Shown here: in pieces, positions 12,829 through 26,214 of the stretch
Position numbering within the stretch: the first letter of the stretch is position 1
Layout of the letters: every line of letters starts with the position of its first letter
NCBI GenBank assembly: GCA_038874135.1
Contig: JAVZCZ010000001.1
Location: 832,001-896,000 of the forward strand
Length of the DNA stretch: 64,000 nt
Direction of reading: 5' to 3'
From: Candidatus Woesearchaeota archaeon
GTDB lineage: Archaea > Nanobdellota > Nanobdellia > Woesearchaeales > 0-14-0-80-44-23
Notes under the pieces: generated by a model
Databases searched by the model: none
Told to the model about the DNA's origin: nothing
The model's input: the letters and a program-made list of their open reading frames with translations, nothing else
Translations under genes and position numbers: made by a program

Positions 12829-12848
12829 AAAGTGAAGGTTCTGTTAAC
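12829..12848 (+). repeat. Left target-site duplication plus left terminal inverted repeat
   Basis: AAAGTGAA|GGTTCTGTTAAC. Confidence 0.85.
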
Positions 12849-12859
12849 AAATGGATTAC

Positions 12860-13786
12860 TCATTTATTTAGAACCTCTGTAAGCTTTACTTGCTTCCTCT
12901 TTTCTAACAACTCATTGATTCTTTTTTCAGCAAGTTTCACATATTCCTTATTAATATCATATCCGACAAATCGACGGTTACTCATTAATGCTGCAACAGC
13001 AGTACTTCCACTTCCGATAAATGGGTCTAAAACTACATCATTTTCAAAAGTATAAAGTTTAATGCATCTTAATGGTAGTTCAACAGGAAAAGGAGCAGGA
13101 TGCCCTACTCTTTTTGCCGATTCTGCTCCAAAAGTCCAGACACTTTTTGTCAATTCTAAAAATTCATCTTTAGTCATTGTTGCCGGTTGGTCATCGTGAT
13201 TGAATCTTGAAAATGTTTCTTTTGAAAAAACCAAAATGTATTCGTGAATATCCCTTAACACAGGATTTTTTGCAGATAACCAACTGCCCCATGCAGTAGA
13301 TGGGCTTGCTGTTGATGCTTTATTCCAAATTATTTCCCCTCGCATTAAAAAACCAAGTTTCTGCATATCTTCAATAATAAAAGAATGAAGTGGGATATAC
13401 GGCTTTCTACCCAAGTTAGCTATATTTATGCAGGCTCTCCCTCCGGGAACAAGAACACGATAAACTTCTTTCCATACTCTTATTAAAAATTCTCTATATT
13501 CACTCAAAGATAAATTTTCATCATACTCTTTGCCAACATTGTAAGGGGGAGAAGTAACCATTAAATGAACACTATTATCTGGCAATTCTTCCATTTTCTC
13601 GCTGGATTTACAAAATACATGATTTATATTTTTATCACTTATTTTATTTTCTACAAAAATGACCTTATCTTTCTCTGTCGATAATCCTTCATAAAGTCGG
13701 CTATTATAAAATTTAGATGAATCATGGTTCATTCTACCCGGAGAGCCGAATTTGCTGGTTTCTGTACCGTTTTTTCTATTTACCAT
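12860..13786 (-). CDS. Site-specific DNA methyltransferase (N4-C/N6-A, beta class)
   Basis: VTSPPY precedes HPAPFP and DPFIGSGST. Confidence 0.93.
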   Translation of the reverse strand: MVNRKNGTETSKFGSPGRMNHDSSKFYNSRLYEGLSTEKDKVIFVENKISDKNINHVFCKSSEKMEELPDNSVHLMVTSPPYNVGKEYDENLSLSEYREFLIRVWKEVYRVLVPGGRACINIANLGRKPYIPLHSFIIEDMQKLGFLMRGEIIWNKASTASPSTAWGSWLSAKNPVLRDIHEYILVFSKETFSRFNHDDQPATMTKDEFLELTKSVWTFGAESAKRVGHPAPFPVELPLRCIKLYTFENDVVLDPFIGSGSTAVAALMSNRRFVGYDINKEYVKLAEKRINELLEKRKQVKLTEVLNK

Positions 13787-13804
13787 TTATTTCCCTCATC
13801 AAAT

Positions 13805-14671
13805 TTAGGAATTTTTCTGCTTTTTTTCGTAAGTATTTTCTTTATTAGCAATCTCAATGAATTTACCCAATTCATTCTTTGATCTCATGCCCGCAAAGAA
13901 CATCATATCTTCTTTTAGCAAAGCTAAAAGTTGAGTTTTGAAATCTAAATAAGAATCAAATCTCAAAAATCCTTTTCCTTTTGTTGCTTTTACATTATCG
14001 CCGTTGTTGTCTAATGGCGCAGGATTTAATGACCAGAACCCTTGTATAATCCCATAATTCTTTAAATTATCAACTTTAGAATAATAACTTTTCATTACAG
14101 GAGTATTACCTAAAACAATTATTGGTATTTTTGCTGATTCCAAAGAGGAAATTCTAACAGTTATGCTTTTTCCAATTGCTTTTAGCATACTATCTGAACG
14201 CAATAATCCCGGATTTCCTTGATGTGTCTTAAAGTCACCTAAACATTTTAATGAATATTTGGAATCATTTTTTAGAAGCTCCCAATTCCAAACAATAGAC
14301 ATCTTCACCTCAAAAATAGCTATAATATCTTGTGGTCTCTGAACAACCGAATCTGTTTTGCAAATTGCGACATCAGCAGGAGAACCTTTTGTAAGCTCCA
14401 ATTCTTCACAAACTACATTCCTAACAGCATATGCATTCAAATCTTTAGCAACATCTTTTAGAAGTTCAACCGACCATTTTTCTGTATATGCTCCAATAAA
14501 AGCGTTTCTGCTCTGCAAAGTAGTTTTAGGTCCTTTGTAATTTTTCGGCCAATAGGCATAATATTTCTTGTTTTTTGTAGTGTAAAATAATTGCTCGGGA
14601 GAAGCAACTTCTAAAGATTTTGTGAAAAAATCGATTTCTTGTTCTTTTGTCCATAATTTTTTATCTAGCAT
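13805..14671 (-). CDS. Putative type II restriction endonuclease (PD-(D/E)xK), C-terminus possibly frameshifted
   Basis: PADVAI...IFEVK catalytic pattern; directly upstream of the MTase. Confidence 0.75.
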   Translation of the reverse strand: MLDKKLWTKEQEIDFFTKSLEVASPEQLFYTTKNKKYYAYWPKNYKGPKTTLQSRNAFIGAYTEKWSVELLKDVAKDLNAYAVRNVVCEELELTKGSPADVAICKTDSVVQRPQDIIAIFEVKMSIVWNWELLKNDSKYSLKCLGDFKTHQGNPGLLRSDSMLKAIGKSITVRISSLESAKIPIIVLGNTPVMKSYYSKVDNLKNYGIIQGFWSLNPAPLDNNGDNVKATKGKGFLRFDSYLDFKTQLLALLKEDMMFFAGMRSKNELGKFIEIANKENTYEKKQKNS

Positions 14672-14819
14672 TTTTCTTACCTTCCCTTTTTATCTCCTCG
14701 ACCATAAAGTTCTCAAATTGCTTTGATACAATCAAACCTTTTTGGTCACAAATATTTTTATAATCCTCATAAGTTTTAGCATCAACGCTTAATGTAATAG
14801 TTCTTTTTCCGTTACCCAT
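14661..14819 (-). CDS. Small ribbon-helix-helix-like regulator (52 aa), not in ORF track
   Basis: MGNGKRTITLSVDAKTYEDYKNICDQKGLIVSKQFENFMVEEIKREGKKNAR; overlaps REase start; TATA-like TTTATAAA upstream. Confidence 0.7.
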   Translation of the reverse strand: MGNGKRTITLSVDAKTYEDYKNICDQKGLIVSKQFENFMVEEIKREGKKNAR

Positions 14820-14944
14820 ATTAACCCCTCAATAAATAAACATATTTAAACATATTTATAAACTTTACCTCAAAACTGCGGCAACAACGAATTTTCGCCT
14901 TCGGTATCGTTGCACTAAAATTTTGTCTTCCCTTCTGTCAGAGA

Positions 14945-15103
14945 GCATAACAGCGATTTAATAGTTCTCAGGGTCGGCTTCGCCTAAAACGCCAAGCGTT
15001 TTCCCCTGCTCTCTCAAATTGAAATTTTGGAGGTCGCTCGGCTGGGTTGCCTGCCTCGCTCCAACTCTCAAAATTCAACTTCGTTAAATTCCGTAAGTTA
15101 AGT
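14945..15103 (+). repeat. attC-like imperfect palindrome (copy 1)
   Basis: GCATAAC...GTTAAGT ends, ATTTAA/TTAAAT and AGTT/AACT inner arms, internal hairpin; right arm shared with 24892-24923. Confidence 0.45.
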
Positions 15104-15286
15104 GAAATAAAAAATGGGTTGCGGGAGTGCCTTCGGCAAAGATTGTCTCGCCTTGCGCGGATATTATAAAACTGATTTTTTCGTTTCCTAACTTTATAGG
15201 ACAGGGCGGTATTTAAACGAAAAGATTAGTAAATTGAGGAAAAAACTTATAAATATGATGATAGGTATCGAAACACGGATGATAAA

Positions 15287-16810
15287 ATGAAGAACAACGG
15301 AGCAAATTTAGGTTTTGAACAAAAACTCTGGCAGGCGGCAGACAAGCTGAGAAGCGACATGGATGCTGCAGAATACAAGCACGTTGTTTTGGGATTAATT
15401 TTCTTAAAATACATTTCTGACTCATTTAAAGAAGTTTATGACGAATTGAAAAAAGATCCAGAAGCTGATCCAGAAGATGTTGATGAATATATTGCAAGAA
15501 GAGTTTTCTGGGTTCCAAAAGAAGCGAGATGGGATTATTTGCAAGCCAATGCAAAAAAACCAGAGATAGGTGAATTAATAGATCATGCAATGGATATTAT
15601 CGAAAGAGACAATCCATCGTTAAAAGGTGTTCTTCCAAAGATTTATGCACGGCCAGCACTAAGTAAACAGCGTCTTGGAGAACTCATAGACATAATCGGC
15701 ACTATTGGTTTAGGTGATAAAGAAAATAAGAGCAAAGATATTCTAGGCAGGGTTTACGAATATTTTCTTGGACAATTTGCGGATGCAGAAGGAAAGAAAG
15801 GTGGTCAGTTCTACACACCGAAATGTATTGTAAAATTACTTGTTGAAATGCTTGAGCCATACAATGGCAGGATATTTGATCCTTGTTGCGGCTCAGGAGG
15901 AATGTTTGTTCAATCAGAAAAATTTGTTGAAGCTCATGGCGGCAAAATAGGAGATATTTCAATTTATGGCCAAGAAAGTAATCAAACAACATGGCGTTTA
16001 TGCAAAATGAATCTTGCAATAAGAAGAATAGATGCAAACATAAAATGGGGCAATTCATTCCATGATGATCAGTTTAAAGATTTAAAAGCTGATTTTATTC
16101 TTGCTAATCCTCCTTTTAACGATTCAGACTGGCGCGGCGAGTTGTTGCAGGAAGATGTGAGATGGAAATATGGTATTCCTCCAAAAGGAAATGCTAATTT
16201 TGCATGGGTTCAGCATTTCATCCATCATTTATCGCCAACAGGGACAGCAGGGTTTGTTCTTGCTAATGGCTCTTTAAGTTCAATGACCTCTAATGAAGGT
16301 GAGATAAGAAAAAATATTGTTAAAGCGGATTTAGTAGATTGCATTGTTGCTCTGCCATCTCAACTTTTCTATAACACAATGATTCCTGCTTGTCTATGGT
16401 TTGTTTCTCGCGATAAAAAAGACAACAAGTTCAAAGATAGACGAGGAAAGATTCTGTTTATTGATGCAAGAAAAATGGGTGTAATGATCGATAGAAGACA
16501 TAGAGAATTAACAGATGAGGAAATAAAGAAAATTGCTGATACTTATCATGCATGGCGTGGAGAAAATAACCTTGAATATAAGGATATTCCCGGCTTTTGT
16601 AAATCTGCCTCATTAGAAGAAGTTGAAAAAAACAATTTTATCTTAACACCAGGCAGATATGTCGGCTTTGAAGAGCAAGAAGAGCCGGAAGAAGTTTTTG
16701 AAGAAAAAATGAAAAAACTAACAGCAGAGCTAAAACAACAAATGGAAGAAAGCAAAAAGCTCGACGAAGAAATAAAAAAGAATTTGGAGAGGTTGGGGTG
16801 GAGGGTTTAG
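15287..16810 (+). CDS. hsdM: Type I R-M modification subunit
   Basis: [39 protein letters not shown]. Confidence 0.97.
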
Positions 16811-16813
16811 AAG

Positions 16814-17947
16814 ATGATGTATAGAATAAGAAAATATCTAGCTTATAAACAATTCATCCCAACAAAAAAAGATTTAGATTGTGAAAAATTAAAGGAGTTG
16901 ACAAATCAGTTAAAAACAAAAACCTTTGACGAAACTTTAGTTAATATTGCTGAATGGCAAGACAGAAATATAAAATACTGGGATGAAAGAGGAGGCATAA
17001 TTAATTATATACTTATCGTTTCTATAACTATTTTGTCAATAATTATAGGCAATATAAATAATTTTGCTTATTTTTTGTTACTGCTAATACCTTTTTTGAT
17101 AATTGGAAAAGAAACTTTAAACATAATTTTCAATATAATAATTTTAGGCGTATCTCTTTTGTTGCCTTTTGTTTTTTTAATTTTAACTATTCCTTCAATA
17201 ACAATAAGTTCAAATTTTCTAATTTTATTTATTGCATTATCCTTTATTTTGGGTGCGTTTATATCTTCAATTTTGAGTATCTATTTTAAGTATCGTAATA
17301 TCAAAAGGTTTATTCCAGATTTTGACATGGGGGATACTTTTAAATTAAGCTTACCTGTAGAAAAAATATTAAAATATCGACTTTCAATATGTAGAGATTA
17401 TGCAAAATTAACAGCTGCTCTACTTTTAAGCATTTATCCAAAAAACGAAGTTTATTTTTTATTAATACCTTCTCATGTTGCGGTTGGTATTAAAAAAGAC
17501 AATAATATATTTGTTATAGATCAGAAACTACCTATTTTAACATTCAATAGCTGGAAAGAAAAATGGAAAAAAAGATTTAATAAAAAAAGATTAAATATAG
17601 AAATATTTAAGATTTATTTAAAAAATAAAGATATTGAAATTCAACCAATCAAAGAAAAAAATATTATTGAACAAAAAACTATTTTAGATATTAAAAAATT
17701 AAATAAAAATTTATCCAGTCTCTTAAACATAGATGAAGTCAAAGAAAAAAAGAAACCGAGTTTAGAAATACCTATTAAAAATATATTACCCCTAATTCAA
17801 AATGAAGAATTAATTGAAAAATCTTTATTTGAATTTATAAAAAACAAAATCGAAGATGAATTAGTAGGAAATATAAAAAATTTGAAGGGCATTCATTTAG
17901 AAAAAAGAAATGATGACTTGATAATAAAATTATGGTTAAAAATATGA
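16814..17947 (+). CDS. Membrane protein with transglutaminase-like (Cys-His-Asp) domain
   Basis: Hydrophobic helices then ICRDYAKL, HVAVGI, VIDQ. Confidence 0.7.
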   Translation: MMYRIRKYLAYKQFIPTKKDLDCEKLKELTNQLKTKTFDETLVNIAEWQDRNIKYWDERGGIINYILIVSITILSIIIGNINNFAYFLLLLIPFLIIGKETLNIIFNIIILGVSLLLPFVFLILTIPSITISSNFLILFIALSFILGAFISSILSIYFKYRNIKRFIPDFDMGDTFKLSLPVEKILKYRLSICRDYAKLTAALLLSIYPKNEVYFLLIPSHVAVGIKKDNNIFVIDQKLPILTFNSWKEKWKKRFNKKRLNIEIFKIYLKNKDIEIQPIKEKNIIEQKTILDIKKLNKNLSSLLNIDEVKEKKKPSLEIPIKNILPLIQNEELIEKSLFEFIKNKIEDELVGNIKNLKGIHLEKRNDDLIIKLWLKI

Positions 17948-19170
17948 AACCCCAAAAACCCAAATTCAAACAAACCGAAATCGGAATGATTCCTGAGGAT
18001 TGGGAAGAAACAACAATTGGGGTTATCTGCAATATTAAAAATGGTAAAACTAACACGCAGGATGCTGTAGAGGATGGAGAATACCCTTTATTTGATCGTT
18101 CAGCGCAAATTAAACGAAGTAACAAATTTATATTTGATTGTGAAGCAATAATTGTGCCTGGTGAAGGAAAAGAATTTCTACCACGATATTTTGAAGGGAA
18201 ATTTGATTTACACCAAAGATCTTATGCTATTTGGAAAAAAGAAAATGTTAATCTAAAGTTTGTTTATTATTGGATTCTTAAAAATAGAGATTATCTCTCT
18301 AGAGTTGCTGTTGGTTCTACTGTTAGATCTCTAAGAATTGGTCATTTACAAAGTTTTCCATTAGGTTTACCTCCCCTCCCCGAGCAACGAGCAATTGCAA
18401 AAATTCTTTCTGACCTTGACTCTAAAATAGAACTATTACAAAAAATGAACAAAACACTTGAAACAATCGGCCAGGCAATTTTCAAGCACTGGTTTGTTGA
18501 TTTTGAGTTTCCAAACGAGGAAGGCAAGCCTTACAAGTCATCAGGTGGCGAGATGGTTTATAATGAAGAATTAGGCAAAGAAATACCGAAGGGATGGAGG
18601 GTTGGAGAATTAGGAAAATTTATAGAGTTTGTAAAAGGAAAAAAACCGAAAGTTGTTTTTAATACTGATAAAGAAGGATTACCACAAATACTAATAGACG
18701 TCCTAGAAGGAGGAAAACCTGCTTTTGTAGATCCAAAAGACATGATTATCTGCAATGAAGAAGATATTATTATGGTTATGGATGGGGCAAGCTCTGGAAG
18801 AATAGAAAGAGGATTTAGTGGTGTTTTAGGTTCCACTCTTGCAAAAATAAAAATAAAAGAATTAAATCAAGATTATATTTATTATTTACTGAAGAATAAG
18901 GAACAAGAAATTAAAGAAAATACTACTGGGACTTCCATTCCACATGCAGATAAAAAGAAAATAGAAAAATTTCTTATTGTTATACCGCCAAAAAAAGTTC
19001 TGGATATTTTTAAAAATAAAATCCTTTTAAAACAAATCGCATTAAAAAAAGAGATTAAAACCCTCTCCCAACTCCGCGATTCTCTCCTTCCTAAACTTAT
19101 ATCTGGCAAAATAAGAGTGCCTGCTGAGATGATAAAAGAGATGGAAAAGGAGATTGAAAAATCTACTTAA
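17932..19170 (+). CDS. hsdS: Type I R-M specificity subunit
   Basis: FKQTEIGMIPEDW, PPLPEQRAIA, EIPKGW, LRDSLLPKLISG; two TRDs; start may be 17944. Confidence 0.95.
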   Translation: MVKNMKPQKPKFKQTEIGMIPEDWEETTIGVICNIKNGKTNTQDAVEDGEYPLFDRSAQIKRSNKFIFDCEAIIVPGEGKEFLPRYFEGKFDLHQRSYAIWKKENVNLKFVYYWILKNRDYLSRVAVGSTVRSLRIGHLQSFPLGLPPLPEQRAIAKILSDLDSKIELLQKMNKTLETIGQAIFKHWFVDFEFPNEEGKPYKSSGGEMVYNEELGKEIPKGWRVGELGKFIEFVKGKKPKVVFNTDKEGLPQILIDVLEGGKPAFVDPKDMIICNEEDIIMVMDGASSGRIERGFSGVLGSTLAKIKIKELNQDYIYYLLKNKEQEIKENTTGTSIPHADKKKIEKFLIVIPPKKVLDIFKNKILLKQIALKKEIKTLSQLRDSLLPKLISGKIRVPAEMIKEMEKEIEKST

Positions 19171-19185
19171 AAGGAAAGATTTAAA

Positions 19186-19223
19186 TATTAACTAAAGTTA
19201 ATATATATTAACTATGGTTAATA
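19186..19223 (+). promoter_or_regulatory. Tandem palindromic operators TATTAAC-N4-GTTAATA
   Basis: Copies at 19186-19203 and 19206-19223, overlapping the TATA box end and the ATG of the wHTH-NTase gene. Confidence 0.7.
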
Positions 19224-19762
19224 AATATAAACAAAAGTTAACATTATTACAACAAGAAATTTTGTCTTTGTTGTTTAGAAAAACAGGATTGTCTTTAAAT
19301 CAGAGACAAATAGCAAAAAATTTAGGAGTTAGCCAAGCAGGTATAACAAAAGCTATTCCATTGTTAGAAAAACTTGATTATGTCAAAATAAAGAAGGATA
19401 AGGAAACTGGCAGATGGTCAATAGAAATAAATCAAAGCAACAGAAGAGTTTTGCAGTTAAAAAGAGTGGAGAACTTAAAAAATATTTACGAAACAGGTTT
19501 TTTTGATTTTTTAGAAAAAGAATTTCCTGGAACAACAATAATTTTGTTTGGCAGTTATTCACGAGGAGATGACACAATAAATTCAGATGTTGATATTGCT
19601 ATTATTGGAACAAAGAGAAAAGAAATTGATTTATCAAACTATGAAAAATTGTTTGAAAGAAAAATAAATCTTAATTTCTACAGCTCTTTTTCAGAAATTC
19701 ATAAAAATCTAAAGGAAAATCTTGCAAATGGAATACTACTAGCAGGAGGATTTGAATTATGA
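19214..19762 (+). CDS. wHTH + minimal nucleotidyltransferase (MNT antitoxin-like)
   Basis: N-terminal HTH (QRQIAKNLGVSQ), LFGSYSRG..DVDIAI. Confidence 0.85.
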   Translation: MVNKYKQKLTLLQQEILSLLFRKTGLSLNQRQIAKNLGVSQAGITKAIPLLEKLDYVKIKKDKETGRWSIEINQSNRRVLQLKRVENLKNIYETGFFDFLEKEFPGTTIILFGSYSRGDDTINSDVDIAIIGTKRKEIDLSNYEKLFERKINLNFYSSFSEIHKNLKENLANGILLAGGFEL

Positions 19763-20190
19763 GAGACTTTAAAGAATTTGTTAAAGAAGGTGTAGTCAAA
19801 AAACAAAAACCTGACAAATCAAGAGCAGAGTATTTAATTAATGAAGCCAATAAATCTTACAATTTACTTTTAATAAAAATTGAAAAATTAGGTGTTAATA
19901 ATGAAACTGCAAATGATTTAATTAAAACATGTTATGATATTATAATGGAGCTGATCAGAGCAAAAATGCTTTTGGAAGGTTATAATGCATCGGGCCATAG
20001 TGCGCATGAAGCAGAAGTTTCTTATCTTTCATTGATTAATTTTAATGAAAGAGACATACAATTTCTTGATCAATTGAGATATTTCAGAAATGGAATAATT
20101 TATTATGGAACTAATTTAAACAAAGATTATGCCGAGAAGGTTATAGATTTCACAAAAAGGATCTACCAAAAATTGAAGAATCAAAAATAA
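19759..20190 (+). CDS. HEPN-like protein (partner of MNT)
   Basis: Helical, ATGA-coupled to MNT gene, LRYFRNGIIYYG. Confidence 0.7.
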   Translation: MRDFKEFVKEGVVKKQKPDKSRAEYLINEANKSYNLLLIKIEKLGVNNETANDLIKTCYDIIMELIRAKMLLEGYNASGHSAHEAEVSYLSLINFNERDIQFLDQLRYFRNGIIYYGTNLNKDYAEKVIDFTKRIYQKLKNQK

Positions 20191-20195
20191 AAATA

Positions 20196-20292
20196 TGTTA
20201 ATATTTTTTTAACATTTGTTAATTATTTTTAACATATATTTTGTGGTTTATTTTTCAAAAGATTTAAATATTAATGTTAATTATTTTTAACA
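20196..20292 (+). promoter_or_regulatory. Three palindromic operators TGTTAA-N6/7-TTAACA
   Basis: 20196-20214, 20217-20234, 20275-20292 around TATA TTTAAATA; the last abuts the ATG at 20294. Confidence 0.7.
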
Positions 20293-20293
20293 T

Positions 20294-20806
20294 ATGTTAG
20301 AAATATTTAACACTTTGAAGCCTTTCTTTGAAGATTGTTATAGACGTATTAATGTTCGCGAATATGCAAGAATTCAAAAAATAAGCCCGCCAACAGCTTC
20401 AAAGATTCTTGAAAAATTGCATAAAGAAGGTTTGCTCAAAAAAGAAGAAGAGAATCTTTATAATTATTATTTCGCAAATAAAGATTCTGAGTTTTTCATA
20501 GAATTATCAAGAATTTATTGGAAAAGAATATTAGAAGATTCAGGATTGTTAGAAGAACTAGAAAAAAATCTGCTAAATCCGATAATTTATCTTTTCGGTT
20601 CTTTATCAAAAGCAGAAGCGAAAGTTGATTCTGACGTCGATTTAGCAATTTTCACGCCAGCAAAAAAAGAAATTAATCTTGAAAAATTTGAAAAACTTCT
20701 AAAAAGGAAAATACAGATTTTTGTTTTTAAGGATATGAAAGATGTAAAAAACGAAGAACTGCTTAAAAATATACTAAATGGTTTCAAAATAAAAGGAAGC
20801 TGGTAA
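20294..20806 (+). CDS. wHTH + minimal nucleotidyltransferase (second MNT)
   Basis: VREYARIQKISPPTASKIL HTH, LFGSLSKAE..SDVDLAI. Confidence 0.85.
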   Translation: MLEIFNTLKPFFEDCYRRINVREYARIQKISPPTASKILEKLHKEGLLKKEEENLYNYYFANKDSEFFIELSRIYWKRILEDSGLLEELEKNLLNPIIYLFGSLSKAEAKVDSDVDLAIFTPAKKEINLEKFEKLLKRKIQIFVFKDMKDVKNEELLKNILNGFKIKGSW

Positions 20807-20807
20807 A

Positions 20808-21212
20808 ATGGACTGGAAAGAATGTTTAAAACAAAGAATTGCGAAAGAAACAAAAGAAGATAAAAATCTAGTAAAATCTTTATTAGAAACAGCAGAAATA
20901 AAATTAAAGTCTGCTGATTCTTTGACTGATGAATTTTTTATAAGCAAAATCTCTTTATTGTATGATTCTCTAAGAGAAATTCTAGAAGCACTAGCTATTA
21001 AAAAAGGGTTTAAGATTTATAACCATGAATGCTACACGGCTTTTCTAAAGGAGATAATAGGTTTGTCAAGGGAAGCAGATATTTTTAATGATTTGAGAAA
21101 AACTAGAAATGATATAAATTATTATGGAAAAAAACTTGAAAAAGAAGAAGCAAAAGTAATTATAGAAAAATTAAAAAATTTGATTTCAAAATTTAAAAAT
21201 ATAATAAAATGA
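20808..21212 (+). CDS. HEPN-like protein (second)
   Basis: [17 protein letters not shown]; follows MNT gene. Confidence 0.7.
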
Positions 21213-24200
21213 AAAAAGCACTCTCTGAATCGGATGTTGAGGAATTTGTCTTATCACTTTTGGAAAGCTTGGGCTATGAAATAATAAGAGGTAATAGTGA
21301 GGATTACTTACCAAATGGAAGATATGCTCTAAGACAAAGATATGAAGATGTTGTGCTTGTTAGCAGGCTGCGTGAGGCTTTAAGGAGGATTAATCAACAG
21401 GCTTCAGAAGAAGCGAGAGAGCAAGCAATAAAAGAAATTCAAAGGATAGGAAGTCAAAAACTGATTGTGGACAATGAGACCTTTCATAAGATGCTTACTG
21501 ATGGTATCAGTGTTCCAATTACAAAAGCTGGTGAAGAAAGGCATGTTTTGATTAATTTGTTTGACTTTAAAGATATAAAAAATAACGATTTTCTTGTTGT
21601 TAATCAATTTACAGTAATAGAAAACAATGTTGAAAGAAGACCTGATATTGTTTTGTTTGTTAATGGTTTGCCTTTGGTTGTTATAGAGTTAAAAAATCCT
21701 GCTGATGAAAATGCAACAATTTGGACAGCATACAATCAGTTTCAAACATATAAAGAACAGATACCATCTTTGTTCAAATATAATGAGATCTTGGTTATTA
21801 GTGATGGCATAGATGCAAGAGCAGGCACGATTACTTCTGAACCAGAAAGATTTATGCAATGGAAGACAATAGACGGAGAAAAACCAAAGCAAGGATTAAC
21901 AGAAATAGAGATTTTGATTAGAGGAATGCTCGACAAAGAAAGACTTCTAGATATTGTAAGAAACTTTATTGTTTTTGAAAAAGATAAAGAAACAAAAAAG
22001 AAATTGGCAGCGTATCATCAATATTGGGCAGCAAACAAAGCGTTAGAGTCAACAATACAAGCAAGAAAAACAAACAAGAAAGCAGGTATTGTATGGCACA
22101 CACAAGGTTCTGGGAAGAGCCTAACAATGATATTTTATGCAGGAAAGTTAATTAAAGAGCTCGATAATCCAACAATAGTTATTCTTACAGATAGAAACGA
22201 CCTTGACGATCAGTTATTTGGAACATTCGGCAAATGTCAAGATATTTTAAGACAAAAACCAGTTCAAGCAAACACAAGAAAAGAATTACAAGAATTACTC
22301 AAGGTCTCTTCAGGGGGGATAGTTTTTACAACAATACAAAAGTTTTTCCCAGAGGAAGACAGAGAAAAATATCCTGTGCTTTCCCAAAGAGACAATATTA
22401 TAGTTATAGCAGACGAAGCTCACAGAAGCCAGTATGGTTTTACAGCAAAAATACTAAAAAAAGAGGATAGAGCATTAATTACTTACGGTTATGCAAAGTA
22501 TTTGAGAGACGCTTTGCCTAATGCATCATTTATTGGCTTTACTGGAACCCCTATAGAAAAAGCAGATAGATCAACTCCTGCAGTTTTTGGAAAATATGTT
22601 GATGTTTATGATATAGAACAAGCAGTAAATGATGGTGCAACTGTAAGAATTTTTTATGAAAGCAGATTAGCAAAACTGGAGTTAAAACCAGAAGAAAGAC
22701 CAAAAATAGACCTTGAATTTGAAGAGGTAACAGAAGGAGAAGAGATAGCACATAAAGAAAGGCTAAAGAGCAAATGGGCAAGATTGGAAAAAATTGCTGG
22801 CGCTCCAAAAAGAATAAAAAGAATTGCACAAGATATTGTTAATCATTTTGAACAAAGGCTTTCTGTTCTTGATGGAAAAGGAATGATTGTTTGTATGTCA
22901 AGAAGAATATGCATCGACCTTTATAATGAAATAATAAAATTAAGACCAGCATGGCATAATGAAGATGATGACAAAGGGTTTATCAAAGTCGTAATAACAG
23001 GCTCTGCTTCGGATTCAAAAGAATGGCAAAAGCATATAAGAAACAAAGTCAGAAGAAAGAAAATAGGCGATAACTTCAAGGATCCAGAACATGAAATTAA
23101 ACTGCTTATTGTAAGAGACATGTTCTTAACTGGTTTCGATGCACCGAGTTTGCACACAATGTATCTTGACAAACCAATCAAAGGTCATACTTTAATGCAG
23201 GCAATAGCAAGAGTTAATAGAGTTTATCCCGGAAAGGAAGGCGGTTTAATTGTTGATTATATTGGTATTGGTGCTGAATTGAAAAAAGCCTTGATGGATT
23301 ATACAGAAAGCGGAGGTAAAGGAAAGCCAATATTAGACCAAGAAGAGGCAGTTAAATTAATGCTCGAGAAATATGAAACTGTAAAGGATATGTTTTATGG
23401 TTTTAATTATAAGAAATTTTTTGAGCTTCCACCAAAAGAAAAATTGGCTTTCATACCAAATGCAATAGAACACTTACTAAAAGAAGCAGGGAAAAAAGAA
23501 AGATTTGTAAAAGAAGCCACAGCTCTTATAAAAGCGTTCTCTTTGTCAGTTCCCCACGAAAAAGCTATGAAAATTAAGGAAGAAGTTGCTTTTTTCCAAG
23601 CAATAAAATCGATAATATCAAAAACAATTGAAACCAAAAAAGATGTAAAAGAAAAATATGAAACGGCGATCAAACAGATTATCTCAAAAGCAGTGATCTC
23701 TGATAGAATTATAGATATATTTGAGGCTGCCGGAATTCAAAAACCCGAGCTTTCAATTTTATCAGATGCTTTTTTAGCAGAAATAAAAGAGATGCCTCAG
23801 AAAAACTTGGCGTTTGAAGCTCTAAAAAAATTATTGAACGATGAGATCAAGATAATTTCAAAAAGAAATCTTGTTCAAGGCAAATCTTTCATGGAGATGC
23901 TAGACACAACAATAAAAAAATATACAAATAGAGCTGTAGAGGCTGCGCAAGTTATAGAAGAATTAATAGAGTTGGCAAGAAAAGTTAGAGAAGAAAAAAA
24001 CAGGGGAAAAGAGCTTGGAATGAGTGAAGATGAACTTGCATTTTATGATGCGCTTGAAGTTAATGATAGCGCAGTTAAAATACTTGGTAATGAAACCTTA
24101 AGAAAAATAGCGCTAGAACTAACGCAGATGATAAGAAAAAGTGTTACAATAGACTGGACACAGAGAGAAAGTGTTCAAGCAGAGTTGCGTCTTAAAGTAA

Positions 24201-24307
24201 AGAAAATACTGAGAAAATATGGTTATCCTCCTGACAAAGAGAAAAAGGCAACAGAAACCGTCTTAAAACAAGCAGAGTTGGTTGCTGGAAATTTAGTTGC
24301 TGTTTAA
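21209..24307 (+). CDS. hsdR: Type I R-M restriction subunit
   Basis: [19 protein letters not shown] nuclease, [26 protein letters not shown]. Confidence 0.97.
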
Positions 24308-24670
24308 ATACAAAAAATAGATGCTTGGATCAAGTCTGTTGACAGAGGGTTTTATGATGTTCCCTATACTTATCGCAAAGGAACACATCAAGTTTGGGTA
24401 AAATTTAACCCCGACTTCTTTATCAAGATAGGAAAAGACATTATGGTTGTAGAGATAAAATCTGACGAAGCTATCGCCGAAGGAAATAAAGCCAAATTGA
24501 AATATGCTAGAATACACTTCGAAGAATTGAATAAAAAGCAGAAGAAACTTAAATATTATTCCAAGTTCCTTTCCCCACAAGATTTTCTACAATTTTTTTA
24601 AGCCATAAAATCTGGAAATTATGCAGAATATACTAGTAATCTTGAAGCCGAAATTAAAAGGCTAATTTAA
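24308..24670 (+). pseudogene. C-terminal remnant of a type III restriction (Res)-like endonuclease
   Basis: No start codon; reads IDAWIKSVDRGFY..FNPDFFIK..VVEIKSD..NKAK, in-frame TAA at 24599-24601. Confidence 0.7.
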
Positions 24671-24674
24671 AAGA

Positions 24675-24762
24675 ATAGACCTAGAAATTGACGAGCTCGT
24701 CTATAAGATTTATGACATAAACTGAAGAGGAGAAGAAAATAATTGAAGAAAGTTTCAAATAA
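24675..24762 (+). pseudogene. C-terminal remnant of a type IIG/Eco57I-like R-M fusion
   Basis: IDLEIDELVYKIYDI/TEEEKKIIEESFK* with a one-base frameshift; typical C-terminal signature of these enzymes. Confidence 0.65.
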
Positions 24763-24923
24763 CGCCGCCCCGTCTTCTAATAAAAAACGAAAAATCTCCT
24801 AAAATTTCCGCCACGATCCATTTTTACTCTCCTCACAGCTTCACTGTTCGTCGGCACGTTGCACTCGTTCGCCCAAATTTCCCCAACAGGAAACTTCGTT
24901 AAATCGCATATGTTAGTTGCAAT
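24757..24923 (+). repeat. attC-like element (copy 2, right arm conserved)
   Basis: AACTTCGTTAAAT-N7-GTTAGTTGCAAT matches AACTTCGTTAAAT-N7-GTTAAGTGAAAT of copy 1. Confidence 0.4.
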
Positions 24924-24974
24924 TTGCCCCCTCGCTACGAAATGGAAAACGAACGGAAGCCCAACTGCAAACGC

Positions 24975-25322
24975 CTAATGCAACTTATCAATACGATTTT
25001 TTAGCTGATTCTTTAAGAATTTATTTAATGCTTCATCAACAGTTCTTTCTTCGGTTACAATTGGTGTGATGTTGCTGTTTACTAAATCTGAATAAATTCT
25101 TTGCCCCATTCCATAACTGATCACAATCTCACAATCTTTTACATTCTTAATCATGGCTGAATGGTCACAACTTCCACACTCGCTAGAGCTTTTACCAATA
25201 TTTTCCCTATAAGTTCTATTAATCACCTTTCCATTTTGAATATCAAACACTACAAAACCCATTGCTCTACCAAAATGGGGAGATATTGTTTTTTTGTCAT
25301 CACTTGCTATTGCTATCTTCAT
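24975..25322 (-). CDS. NifB/NifX-family (FeMo-cofactor-binding-like) protein
   Basis: MKIAIASDD..ISPHFGRA..F, VISYGMG. Confidence 0.88.
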   Translation of the reverse strand: MKIAIASDDKKTISPHFGRAMGFVVFDIQNGKVINRTYRENIGKSSSECGSCDHSAMIKNVKDCEIVISYGMGQRIYSDLVNSNITPIVTEERTVDEALNKFLKNQLKNRIDKLH

Positions 25323-25653
25323 CTTGTAACCCCCTCCTCTGACAAAAACCTCTGCCTTTTCTTATAAATTTAAAATTTCCGCCCTCAATTTTAAGGGCTT
25401 TTCCATTTACAATAGAATCAGCAATTTTTTTCCTGGCTGATAAAATTAACCTATGAAAAGTTGGCTGTGAAATATTCATTTTTTTGGCACATTCTTCTTG
25501 TTCCAAGCCTTCTAAATCTTTTAATCTTACAGCTTCAAATTCATCAAGAGTAAGAATTGATTCTTCTAAATCTGATACCGGAATTCCTCTCGGCTTAAAA
25601 TAAGTAACATTTGGTTTTGAAAAGATTCTCCTGCAAAGCCTCGGTCGTGCCAT
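25300..25653 (-). CDS. DUF134 DNA-binding protein
   Basis: MARPRLCR, YFKPRG, EAVRLKD, MNISQPTFHR. Confidence 0.92.
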   Translation of the reverse strand: MARPRLCRRIFSKPNVTYFKPRGIPVSDLEESILTLDEFEAVRLKDLEGLEQEECAKKMNISQPTFHRLILSARKKIADSIVNGKALKIEGGNFKFIRKGRGFCQRRGLQDEDSNSK

Positions 25654-25655
25654 AT

Positions 25656-25673
25656 TATGAATACTTATTCACA
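25656..25673. promoter_or_regulatory. Palindromic operator upstream of DUF134 gene
   Basis: TATGAATACTTATTCACA between minus-strand TATA (25678-25685) and the start codon. Confidence 0.6.
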
Positions 25674-25717
25674 TTTCTATTTAAACCTTACGAAAATAAA
25701 AAAGCAAAAGAATAAGC

Positions 25718-25954
25718 TTACTCCATTTCTTTCAATTTTTTCTCTATCTCTTGCTTTTCCAAATCTATTTCTTTGAGCTCTGCTTCGAGGATTTTCTTTT
25801 CTTCTTCTTTCGTTAAGGTTACTTGTCTTCTAAATCCAACTCCTCTTCTGTAACCTCTGCTAAATCCTCTTCGCATTCCATAACTACAAGGTCCAAGTCC
25901 TCTTCCTGTTAGAGGTCCTAAACCTAAAGGTCCTGTACCGTCTTGTCCTGGCAT
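25718..25954 (-). CDS. DUF5320-family protein
   Basis: MPGQDGTGPLGLGPLTGRGLGPC, Gly/Arg-rich, C-terminal coiled coil; GGAGGTG RBS. Confidence 0.88.
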   Translation of the reverse strand: MPGQDGTGPLGLGPLTGRGLGPCSYGMRRGFSRGYRRGVGFRRQVTLTKEEEKKILEAELKEIDLEKQEIEKKLKEME

Positions 25955-25974
25955 TTTGTTCACCTCCTTATGTT

Positions 25975-26000
25975 TAATTATGAATATATATTCATAATTA
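25975..26000. promoter_or_regulatory. Perfect 26-bp palindromic operator upstream of DUF5320 gene
   Basis: TAATTATGAATATATATTCATAATTA just downstream of minus-strand TATA. Confidence 0.7.
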
Positions 26001-26160
26001 CTATTTAAACCTTTCGGTTTTTCGTGGTGGGGCTTCTAAAATATGGTCTGTTACGCAGAAATAATAATAAATGTTCGATGGCAAAAATTCAGAGCTGTTG
26101 ATTCTGCATAAATTTGGTGATAAAAATGAAGATTTTTAATGTTTAAGGCATCAACATTAA

Positions 26161-26180
26161 GTTAACAGAACCAAAGTGAA
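26161..26180 (+). repeat. Right terminal inverted repeat plus right target-site duplication
   Basis: GTTAACAGAACC|AAAGTGAA. Confidence 0.85.
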
Positions 26181-26214
26181 AAAATTTTTAAATAGCTTCA
26201 AAATTCTTTATGTT

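Follow-up and report, generated by a model that had tools for sequence, protein, structure and literature searches.

How an AT-rich island of 13,336 bp with defence genes inside came to lie between slyD and an M50 protease gene is the question raised by this stretch of DNA from a small Candidatus Woesearchaeota archaeon living in hot springs (64,000 nucleotides, positions 832,001 to 896,000 of contig JAVZCZ010000001.1; in the following "the window", to which all positions refer unless stated otherwise). The host genome is a single contig of 909,956 bp and is 99.4% complete. An earlier note on this DNA, made from the letters alone, had seen in the island one large cargo transposon bounded by bare ends of an IS6-family insertion sequence (IS), which was either mobilised in trans or had lost its transposase. 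We conclude, with a probability of about 0.7, that the island derives from an archaeal IS6-family unit transposon with one pair of ends, is itself non-autonomous and has a cargo that goes back to an array of gene cassettes.

The ends of the island and their relatives

The island starts with GGTTCTGTTAAC (12837-12848) and ends with its exact reverse complement (26161-26172). Immediately outside, the 8-mer AAAGTGAA can be read directly at both ends on the + strand (12829-12836 and 26173-26180) and forms the target-site duplication. A scan of the whole genome found the terminal 12-mer twice, both times at the ends of the island, and the island was also the sole pair of a perfect 12-bp inverted repeat with an adjoining outer 8-bp direct repeat and ends at most 30 kb apart. 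The arrangement described in the earlier note is therefore present and unique in this genome. The left terminal inverted repeat (12837-12854, + strand) is perfect over 12 bp and matches the right end at 14 of 18 positions, the repeat of the family being 21-23 bp long; the right terminal inverted repeat (26150-26172, − strand) is identical to the 23-bp repeat of an autonomous element found in another genome. The island is indeed AT-rich, with a GC content of 32.0% inside and of 41.8% and 42.1% in the flanks, and the composition shifts at both junctions as had been expected: the maximum-likelihood change points at about 12770 and 26240 are at most about 70 bp away from the element ends. At the third codon position the GC fraction is 0.16-0.28 in the cargo genes and 0.42-0.51 in the flanking genes.

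The last 95 bp of the element are 81% identical to a part of a second island in the same genome, located directly behind the pseudogene of an IS6 transposase. Searching with this pseudogene led to an intact element of 3,223 bp in the genome of a Woesearchaeote of the same order (G325). The 23-bp repeat of this element is perfect and has the sequence of the right end of our element; an 8-bp duplication, passenger genes and an intact transposase are also present. The transposase (285 amino acids, with an N-terminal zinc-binding domain) scores 154.4 with the NCBIfam IS6 model NF033587 (cut-off 125); its nearest named member is ISCpe7 with about 33% identity. An IS6-family DDE transposase with matching repeats thus exists in a relative, and the assignment of the ends to the IS6 family is confirmed by an element in which the same repeat and an 8-bp duplication bound such a transposase.

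In the island itself the GG tip, the cTGTt motif and the 8-bp duplication are present and an encoded IS6 DDE transposase is absent. By alignment we found the last 8 codons and the stop codon of an IS6-family transposase gene at 26085-26111 (+ strand), so the right end is not bare. Because only these 8 codons remain, the island is a derivative of an IS6 element and not an IS. The 3′ remnant bears out the loss of the transposase; for mobilisation in trans there is no such evidence, as the element is present once and the host genome has a single IS6 transposase, a pseudogene, with no intact one beside it. Among the open reading frames inside the island none matched a transposase or an integrase, and there are no inner exact repeats and no transposase genes that would point to a composite layout, so that in both respects the earlier note was right. 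An IS1595 transposase was considered as well and had no match in the genome.

The same type of end is widespread. The last ~90 bp of the element are 95-98% identical to ends in metagenome-assembled genomes (MAGs) of Micrarchaeota, Pacearchaeota and Nanoarchaeia, and a 22-nt end pattern occurs at 15 GTDB loci (Woese-, Pace-, Aenigm-, Micr- and Iainarchaeota, two Asgard lineages and Culexarchaeia) and at 18 metagenome loci. A relaxed 18-mer search of 400 genomes yielded mostly noise. Carriage by viruses was rejected, as the end had 0 matches in viral contigs. Bounded family members of 138 bp (a miniature inverted-repeat transposable element, MITE), 914 bp and 3.8 kb were found; a further one, which is divided between two contigs, has at least 9.3 kb. 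Their duplications agree at 8/8 or 7/8 positions (8/8 here and in G325, L073, L072 and G402; 7/8 in the 138-bp MITE L075). At one element end of L081, L085 and L097 there are 3-4 tandem 25-bp copies of the terminal repeat, which suggests repeated insertion or slippage at one target. Stacked elements at one target site with 9-bp duplications were observed at L067:6050-10752 (G321).

As to the insertion locus, one genome of the host's family and three further families have slyD next to the M50 protease gene, in divergent orientation. We therefore regard the joined state as ancestral, in line with the proposal that the two genes are contiguous once the island is removed. In a genome of the same genus the contig stops within slyD. 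The left junction was recovered in two other MAGs and in a Logan contig with 99.85% identity, and the right end was recovered in contigs from two runs with marginal bridging; runs with small shares were excluded as evidence. The 13-kb unit is present in a single copy at one site in three assemblies.

Probable target choice and cassette capture in the family

We compared 47 distinct ends of the family. A strict TATA motif was present in the outer 45 nt next to 18 of them, and in 15 of these 18 the motif starts at a distance of 12-14 nt. The TATA motifs at this distance represent 14 independent sites among about 40 ends, the background being 1.5% of intergenic positions. One of these sites is the right end of our element, which faces the BRE/TATA-like promoter of the M50 gene (26181-26194, + strand; starting 12 nt outside the tip; BRE, TFB-recognition element), a putative promoter assigned from the archaeal consensus. 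In a second set of ends, stemming mostly from a related MITE family of one genome in which 9-bp duplications prevail, the proportion was 16 of 31. Since selection against harmful insertions alone should spread the distances wider, we infer that promoters are targeted, possibly via the TATA-binding protein (TBP) and transcription factor B (TFB) or via DNA shape. Targeting of this kind would explain the clean insertion between two divergent promoters, and the insertion site seems to follow a rule which the earlier note had missed. In a Woesearchaeote with a 0.9-Mb genome (G356, L173-L202) we observed about 59 ends of a family of 120-145-bp MITEs with unequal ends; the duplications are mostly 9 bp long and many of these MITEs are located between promoters.

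Many family members carry at their left end a gene for a tyrosine recombinase of 269 amino acids facing outward. The recombinase is XerA-like and scores below the XerA and IntI cut-offs (TIGR02249: 179 versus a cut-off of 265); where VchIntIA has 61 residues it has 16, i.e., the IntI-specific additional domain is absent. Upstream of the recombinase lies a conserved attI-like site that ends in G/TT followed by variable DNA, which was seen in 33 of 40 GTDB loci (picked by recombinase homology). An attI beside and divergent from the recombinase is present in the family and in the second element of the host genome, and absent from the 13-kb element. The cassettes are closed by attC-like sites of mostly 83-138 nt, which form hairpins with a 3-nt bulge and have no extrahelical L-box base; in 8 of 10 cases the folded sites reach z values of -3.8 to -6.0. 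As the sites had been chosen for pairing, their arm-pairing rates are circular, and only a junction test and strand and background counts were used. The counts are 20 sites in 115 kb of the array strand, 3 on the opposite strand and 2 in 364 kb of the host side. The rule that the start of a cassette is complementary to the R″ box of its own site holds at 14 of 19 junctions (shuffled mean 2.7, maximum 11 in 100,000). Moreover, in two strains with a shared platform the divergence begins exactly at the crossover of one site. Cassettes of integrons show the same behaviour (PMC9668308), and, judged from these sequences, the recombinase side appears to capture cassettes in the fashion of integrons in the relatives. 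On folding, the site would regain a spacer of 6 bp as in the attI-like site, and such a dif-type geometry would fit a Xer-like enzyme.

In the GTDB sample the linkage of this recombinase to the IS6-type ends is confined to close homologues. With at least 80% identity 4 of 7 recombinases abut the repeat of our element and a further 2 of 7 a second IS6-type element; below 80% identity 0 of 33 touch an IS6-type end or transposase. The IS6-linked recombinases form one short-branched clade (16 rows, support 99/92) spanning several phyla in a tree whose bootstrap is not fully settled. At L115 the second type of end bounds the recombinase, attI and one cassette and is accompanied by an 8-bp duplication. 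This second IS6-type element with its different ends was observed joined to the same recombinase clade at L112, L115, L132, L133 and L172, the transposase gene being convergent on the recombinase.

We also considered that the recombinase acts as a resolvase, as IS6 elements have no known one. The attI and cassette anatomy fits gene capture better, and the enzyme may have a dual role in gene capture and resolution. The host XerA was rejected as the cassette enzyme: the intact XerA of the genome is 41% identical and stands far from the family on a long branch.

Putative cassette remnants, probable origin and cargo of the island

Remnants of the cassette system can be recognized within the 13-kb element. 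A cassette 3′ module (14890-14944, + strand) shows 91% identity over 69 bp, including the left arm of the site that follows, to two cassette ends of array L112. The adjoining attC-like site A (14945-15103, + strand) has left and right arms of different subtypes and does not form the family stem, i.e., it is a decayed hybrid. In site B (24889-24918, + strand) the right arm matches the family consensus and the left arm is missing. Both sites have the same orientation as in the recombinase-bearing relatives, and they divide the cargo into a type II block, a 9.8-kb type I block and a DUF134 block. The type I block has its upstream sequence and a gene stub in common with the type IIG cassette of L115. 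Within the host genome attC-like motifs in proper context occur only in its two elements. On the basis of sequence, an integron-like array of cassettes, now decayed, seems to make up the cargo, an aspect which the earlier note had missed; by the simplest reading this array would have lost the recombinase and attI on its left side and the transposase on its right side. The stop codon of the first gene, a methyltransferase, is just 23 bp away from the element tip, therefore the cassette start, attI and recombinase of the relatives are missing here.

The second family member of the genome (genome positions 217189-221269; L001:10190-14270) is more decayed, with mutated tips and no duplication. It comprises the right end, a broken recombinase, the attI-like site, a cassette with a restriction-modification (R-M) system, a hybrid attC-like site and the transposase pseudogene. 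Further AT-rich regions of the genome (27-34% GC at 267-305 kb and 720-732 kb) are without these ends or sites.

We suggest the following course of events. The fuller layout of the family begins with the left end and the XerA-like recombinase and continues with the attI-like site and with cassettes, each of which an attC-like hairpin closes; the transposase comes last before the right end. The transposase would move the whole platform and place the duplicated 8 bp just upstream of a BRE-TATA promoter, and an insertion at this position would leave the host genes intact. The present copy would have gathered three cassettes, namely the type II R-M system, the 9.8-kb type I R-M block and the DUF134 unit. 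Subsequent deletion of the recombinase, attI and the transposase together with decay of the sites would have frozen the cargo, which is probably retained by R-M and toxin-antitoxin addiction and by its defence value. Renewed movement would need a transposase from outside. The odds are about even that the losses occurred before the arrival at slyD-M50, so that the element jumped in its present form, or after it by decay in place. In a wider sense, and with slightly better than even chances, the family could be an archaeal analogue of the mobile integrons: a promoter-targeting IS6-family transposon, possibly guided by host TBP/TFB, would have captured a non-IntI XerA-like recombinase with its own attC-like hairpins and would spread defence cassettes across DPANN phyla, the island being an end product.

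Several observations weigh against a derivative of a cassette-capturing IS6 transposon. The left repeat is perfect over only 12 bp and thus short for the family. We found the 13-kb unit neither in a second copy nor at a second target site; the joints listed for four runs (contigs only) contained no empty site at the nucleotide level, which in itself speaks neither for nor against the element. The recombinase lacks a domain reported to be necessary for integron recombination, and we found no element with these ends in which both transposase and recombinase are intact. In the 13-kb element recombinase and attI are absent and neither attC-like site is intact, which leaves nothing on which the junction rule could be read; its link to cassettes consists of a single hybrid site, half of another and the shared modules beside them.

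These points leave room for other explanations, the strongest of which is a plain mobile insertion cassette (MIC), in which bare IS6 ends acquired the defence genes by ordinary rearrangement and moved in trans as they are, the attC-like remnants being passive. The perfect duplication and a right end that is 95-98% identical to elements of other phyla suggest a recent arrival, transposase-less family members with intact duplications exist (L072, with its 12 bp of perfect repeat), and MICs of 3-19 kb are known from the Tn3 family (PMC4337579). We nevertheless consider this explanation unlikely: the sites keep the order and orientation of the recombinase-bearing relatives and coincide with the block boundaries, the recombinase subclade is closely associated with these ends, and the genome has no present source of transposase. 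Considerably less probable still is a mosaic composite, in which a short MITE (about 26045-26172) provides the right end, an unrelated family end the left one, and host-island DNA in between was moved as a unit. A degenerate end-like 10-mer at 26045 and the departure of the left repeat from the right after 12 bp are in its favour, as is a faint likeness to the 138-bp MITE L075, whose global alignment score is reached by 0.8% of random segments; this comparison was, however, picked post hoc, the local alignment test is not significant (12%), and 25940-26084 is without a database match. Finally, AT-richness raises the number of chance matches, and the repeats could by coincidence flank an island that owes its insertion to a tyrosine recombinase or to homologous recombination. 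We give this hardly any credence, as the pair is the sole one in the genome scan and the same end is linked to a transposase and duplications in several unrelated genomes; the autonomous relative refutes it. We therefore prefer the decayed, cassette-bearing IS6 derivative.

The genes of the three blocks are as follows. The type II block, on the − strand, contains an N4/N6 DNA methyltransferase (12860-13786; PF01555, E = 1.9e-51; PADLOC MTase_II, E = 4.9e-148), a probable restriction endonuclease (13805-14671), whose Atlas neighbours are named restriction endonuclease (0.97-0.98) and which had no Pfam, NCBIfam or PADLOC match, and a small ribbon-helix-helix (RHH)-like gene of 52 amino acids (14661-14819), a putative controller with homologues in the second element and in relatives. 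A copy of this controller-endonuclease-methylase module with 80% identity was observed at L126-L129, where the junctions of the array are of another and shorter type.

The type I block, on the + strand, starts with hsdM (15287-16810, profile match), followed by the gene of a DUF553 transglutaminase-like membrane protein within the type I operon (16814-17947; PF04473, E = 5e-23) and hsdS (17932-19170). A winged helix-turn-helix (wHTH)-nucleotidyltransferase forms a first pair with a HEPN protein (19214-20190, similar to PADLOC PDC-M05A/B) and a second with a HEPN-like protein (20294-21212, profile and PADLOC searches). Mutually related palindromes lie before both nucleotidyltransferase genes (19184-19245 and 20196-20312) and are probably operators for self-repression. 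Then come hsdR (21209-24307, profile match) and gene remnants (24308-24760), which are a nuclease-like fragment and the 3′ stub of a type IIG R-M gene as in the cassette of L115; for the 96-amino-acid fragment behind hsdR no PADLOC model matched. The third block consists of NifX-like, DUF134 and DUF5320 genes (24975-25963, − strand) and is without an attC-like site of its own. An Rfam search gave no match. The cargo list of the earlier note (type II and type I R-M, two MNT/HEPN pairs, the DUF5320/DUF134/NifX unit) was correct in all its entries and had omitted the RHH-like gene, the DUF553 protein between hsdM and hsdS and the remnants after hsdR.

The cargo differs between strains. Both target-recognition domains of HsdS (18005-19060) have been exchanged relative to two MAGs of the same organism, and several variant contigs of this region occur in one run. 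In a run of A residues near 13820 one nucleotide is lost here, resulting in an endonuclease of 288 amino acids instead of the 298 of the sister strains; the two alleles were found in different runs, and the change in run length is possibly phase variation. As the HsdS recognition domains differ and the endonuclease is unshifted in the sister strains, the cargo is still varying.

Comparison with known systems

The genomes of DPANN archaea are small, and few vehicles of gene transfer are known from them; the family described here moves multi-gene defence cargo among distant lineages while leaving host genes unbroken. Programs that find ISs would miss the element, as it has no transposase, and so would programs that find integrons, as there is no IntI and the sites are atypical. 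Our literature search, which covered few subscription papers, brought up neither IS6-borne or IntI-less integrons nor promoter targeting, and no prokaryotic precedent for insertion at a fixed position upstream of BRE-TATA, which an IS6-family element here appears to choose. The combination of IS6-type ends near promoters with integron-like gene capture was described in none of the papers found.

Elements of the IS6/IS26 family have terminal inverted repeats of 15-20 bp with a GG tip and a cTGTt motif, generate an 8-bp duplication and transpose through cointegrates (Varani et al. 2021, PMC7986276). The known members are about 0.8-1.8 kb long and include one passenger carrier (ISDsp3) and two MITEs, and no dedicated recombinase (PMC7986276). 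The archaeal family shares the tip, the motif, the duplication and a DDE transposase with N-terminal zinc-binding domain, whose nearest relative ISCpe7 belongs to zinc-finger clade h. It differs in that as much as 13 kb lies between a single pair of ends, that the transposase is at the right end and that insertion appears to keep a fixed distance to promoters. With the MICs (MIC231 of Bacillus and the Tn3-derived MICs of Xanthomonas, PMC4337579) the island has in common passengers between transposon ends, the missing transposase, a target duplication and a size within 3-19 kb. In contrast to these it has IS6-type ends, an archaeal host and a cargo apparently made up of integron-like cassettes. 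By structure the island is a MIC of IS6 origin.

In the study of archaeal integrons and of clusters of attC sites lacking integron integrases (CALINs) by Ghaly et al. (2022, PMC9668308) the IntI-specific domain is a requirement, and neither IS6 nor transposons come up in the main text. The 13-kb element itself resembles a CALIN, and its family resembles integrons in the divergent orientation of recombinase and array, the attI-like site, the hairpin sites, the G/TT crossover and the complementarity at the junctions. Unlike integrons, the family has a recombinase without the IntI-specific domain, sites with a paired spacer, a 3-nt bulge and no extrahelical L-box base, an attI with a 6-bp dif-like spacer, and cassettes which often contain several genes and reach 4-10 kb. 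In integrons the integrase recombines folded single-stranded sites. A recombinase lacking a supposedly essential domain beside arrays that obey the rule may explain many archaeal arrays considered to be without integrase. Mobile integrons are known as class 1 in Tn402 and class 2 in Tn7. As with these, one short-branched recombinase clade is tied to transposon ends and the others look sedentary, and a parallel can be drawn between the way in which transposon ends captured one recombinase clade and the way in which class 1 integrons arose. The working of the island is that of a decayed mobile integron, yet on its integrase domain and site structure it is not an integron. A further parallel is the yeast element Ty3, whose insertion is guided by TFIIIB/TBP. 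Insertion at a fixed position relative to a core promoter would be common to both; here, however, the element is an archaeal DNA transposon which inserts upstream of BRE-TATA, and a protein tether is only a proposal.

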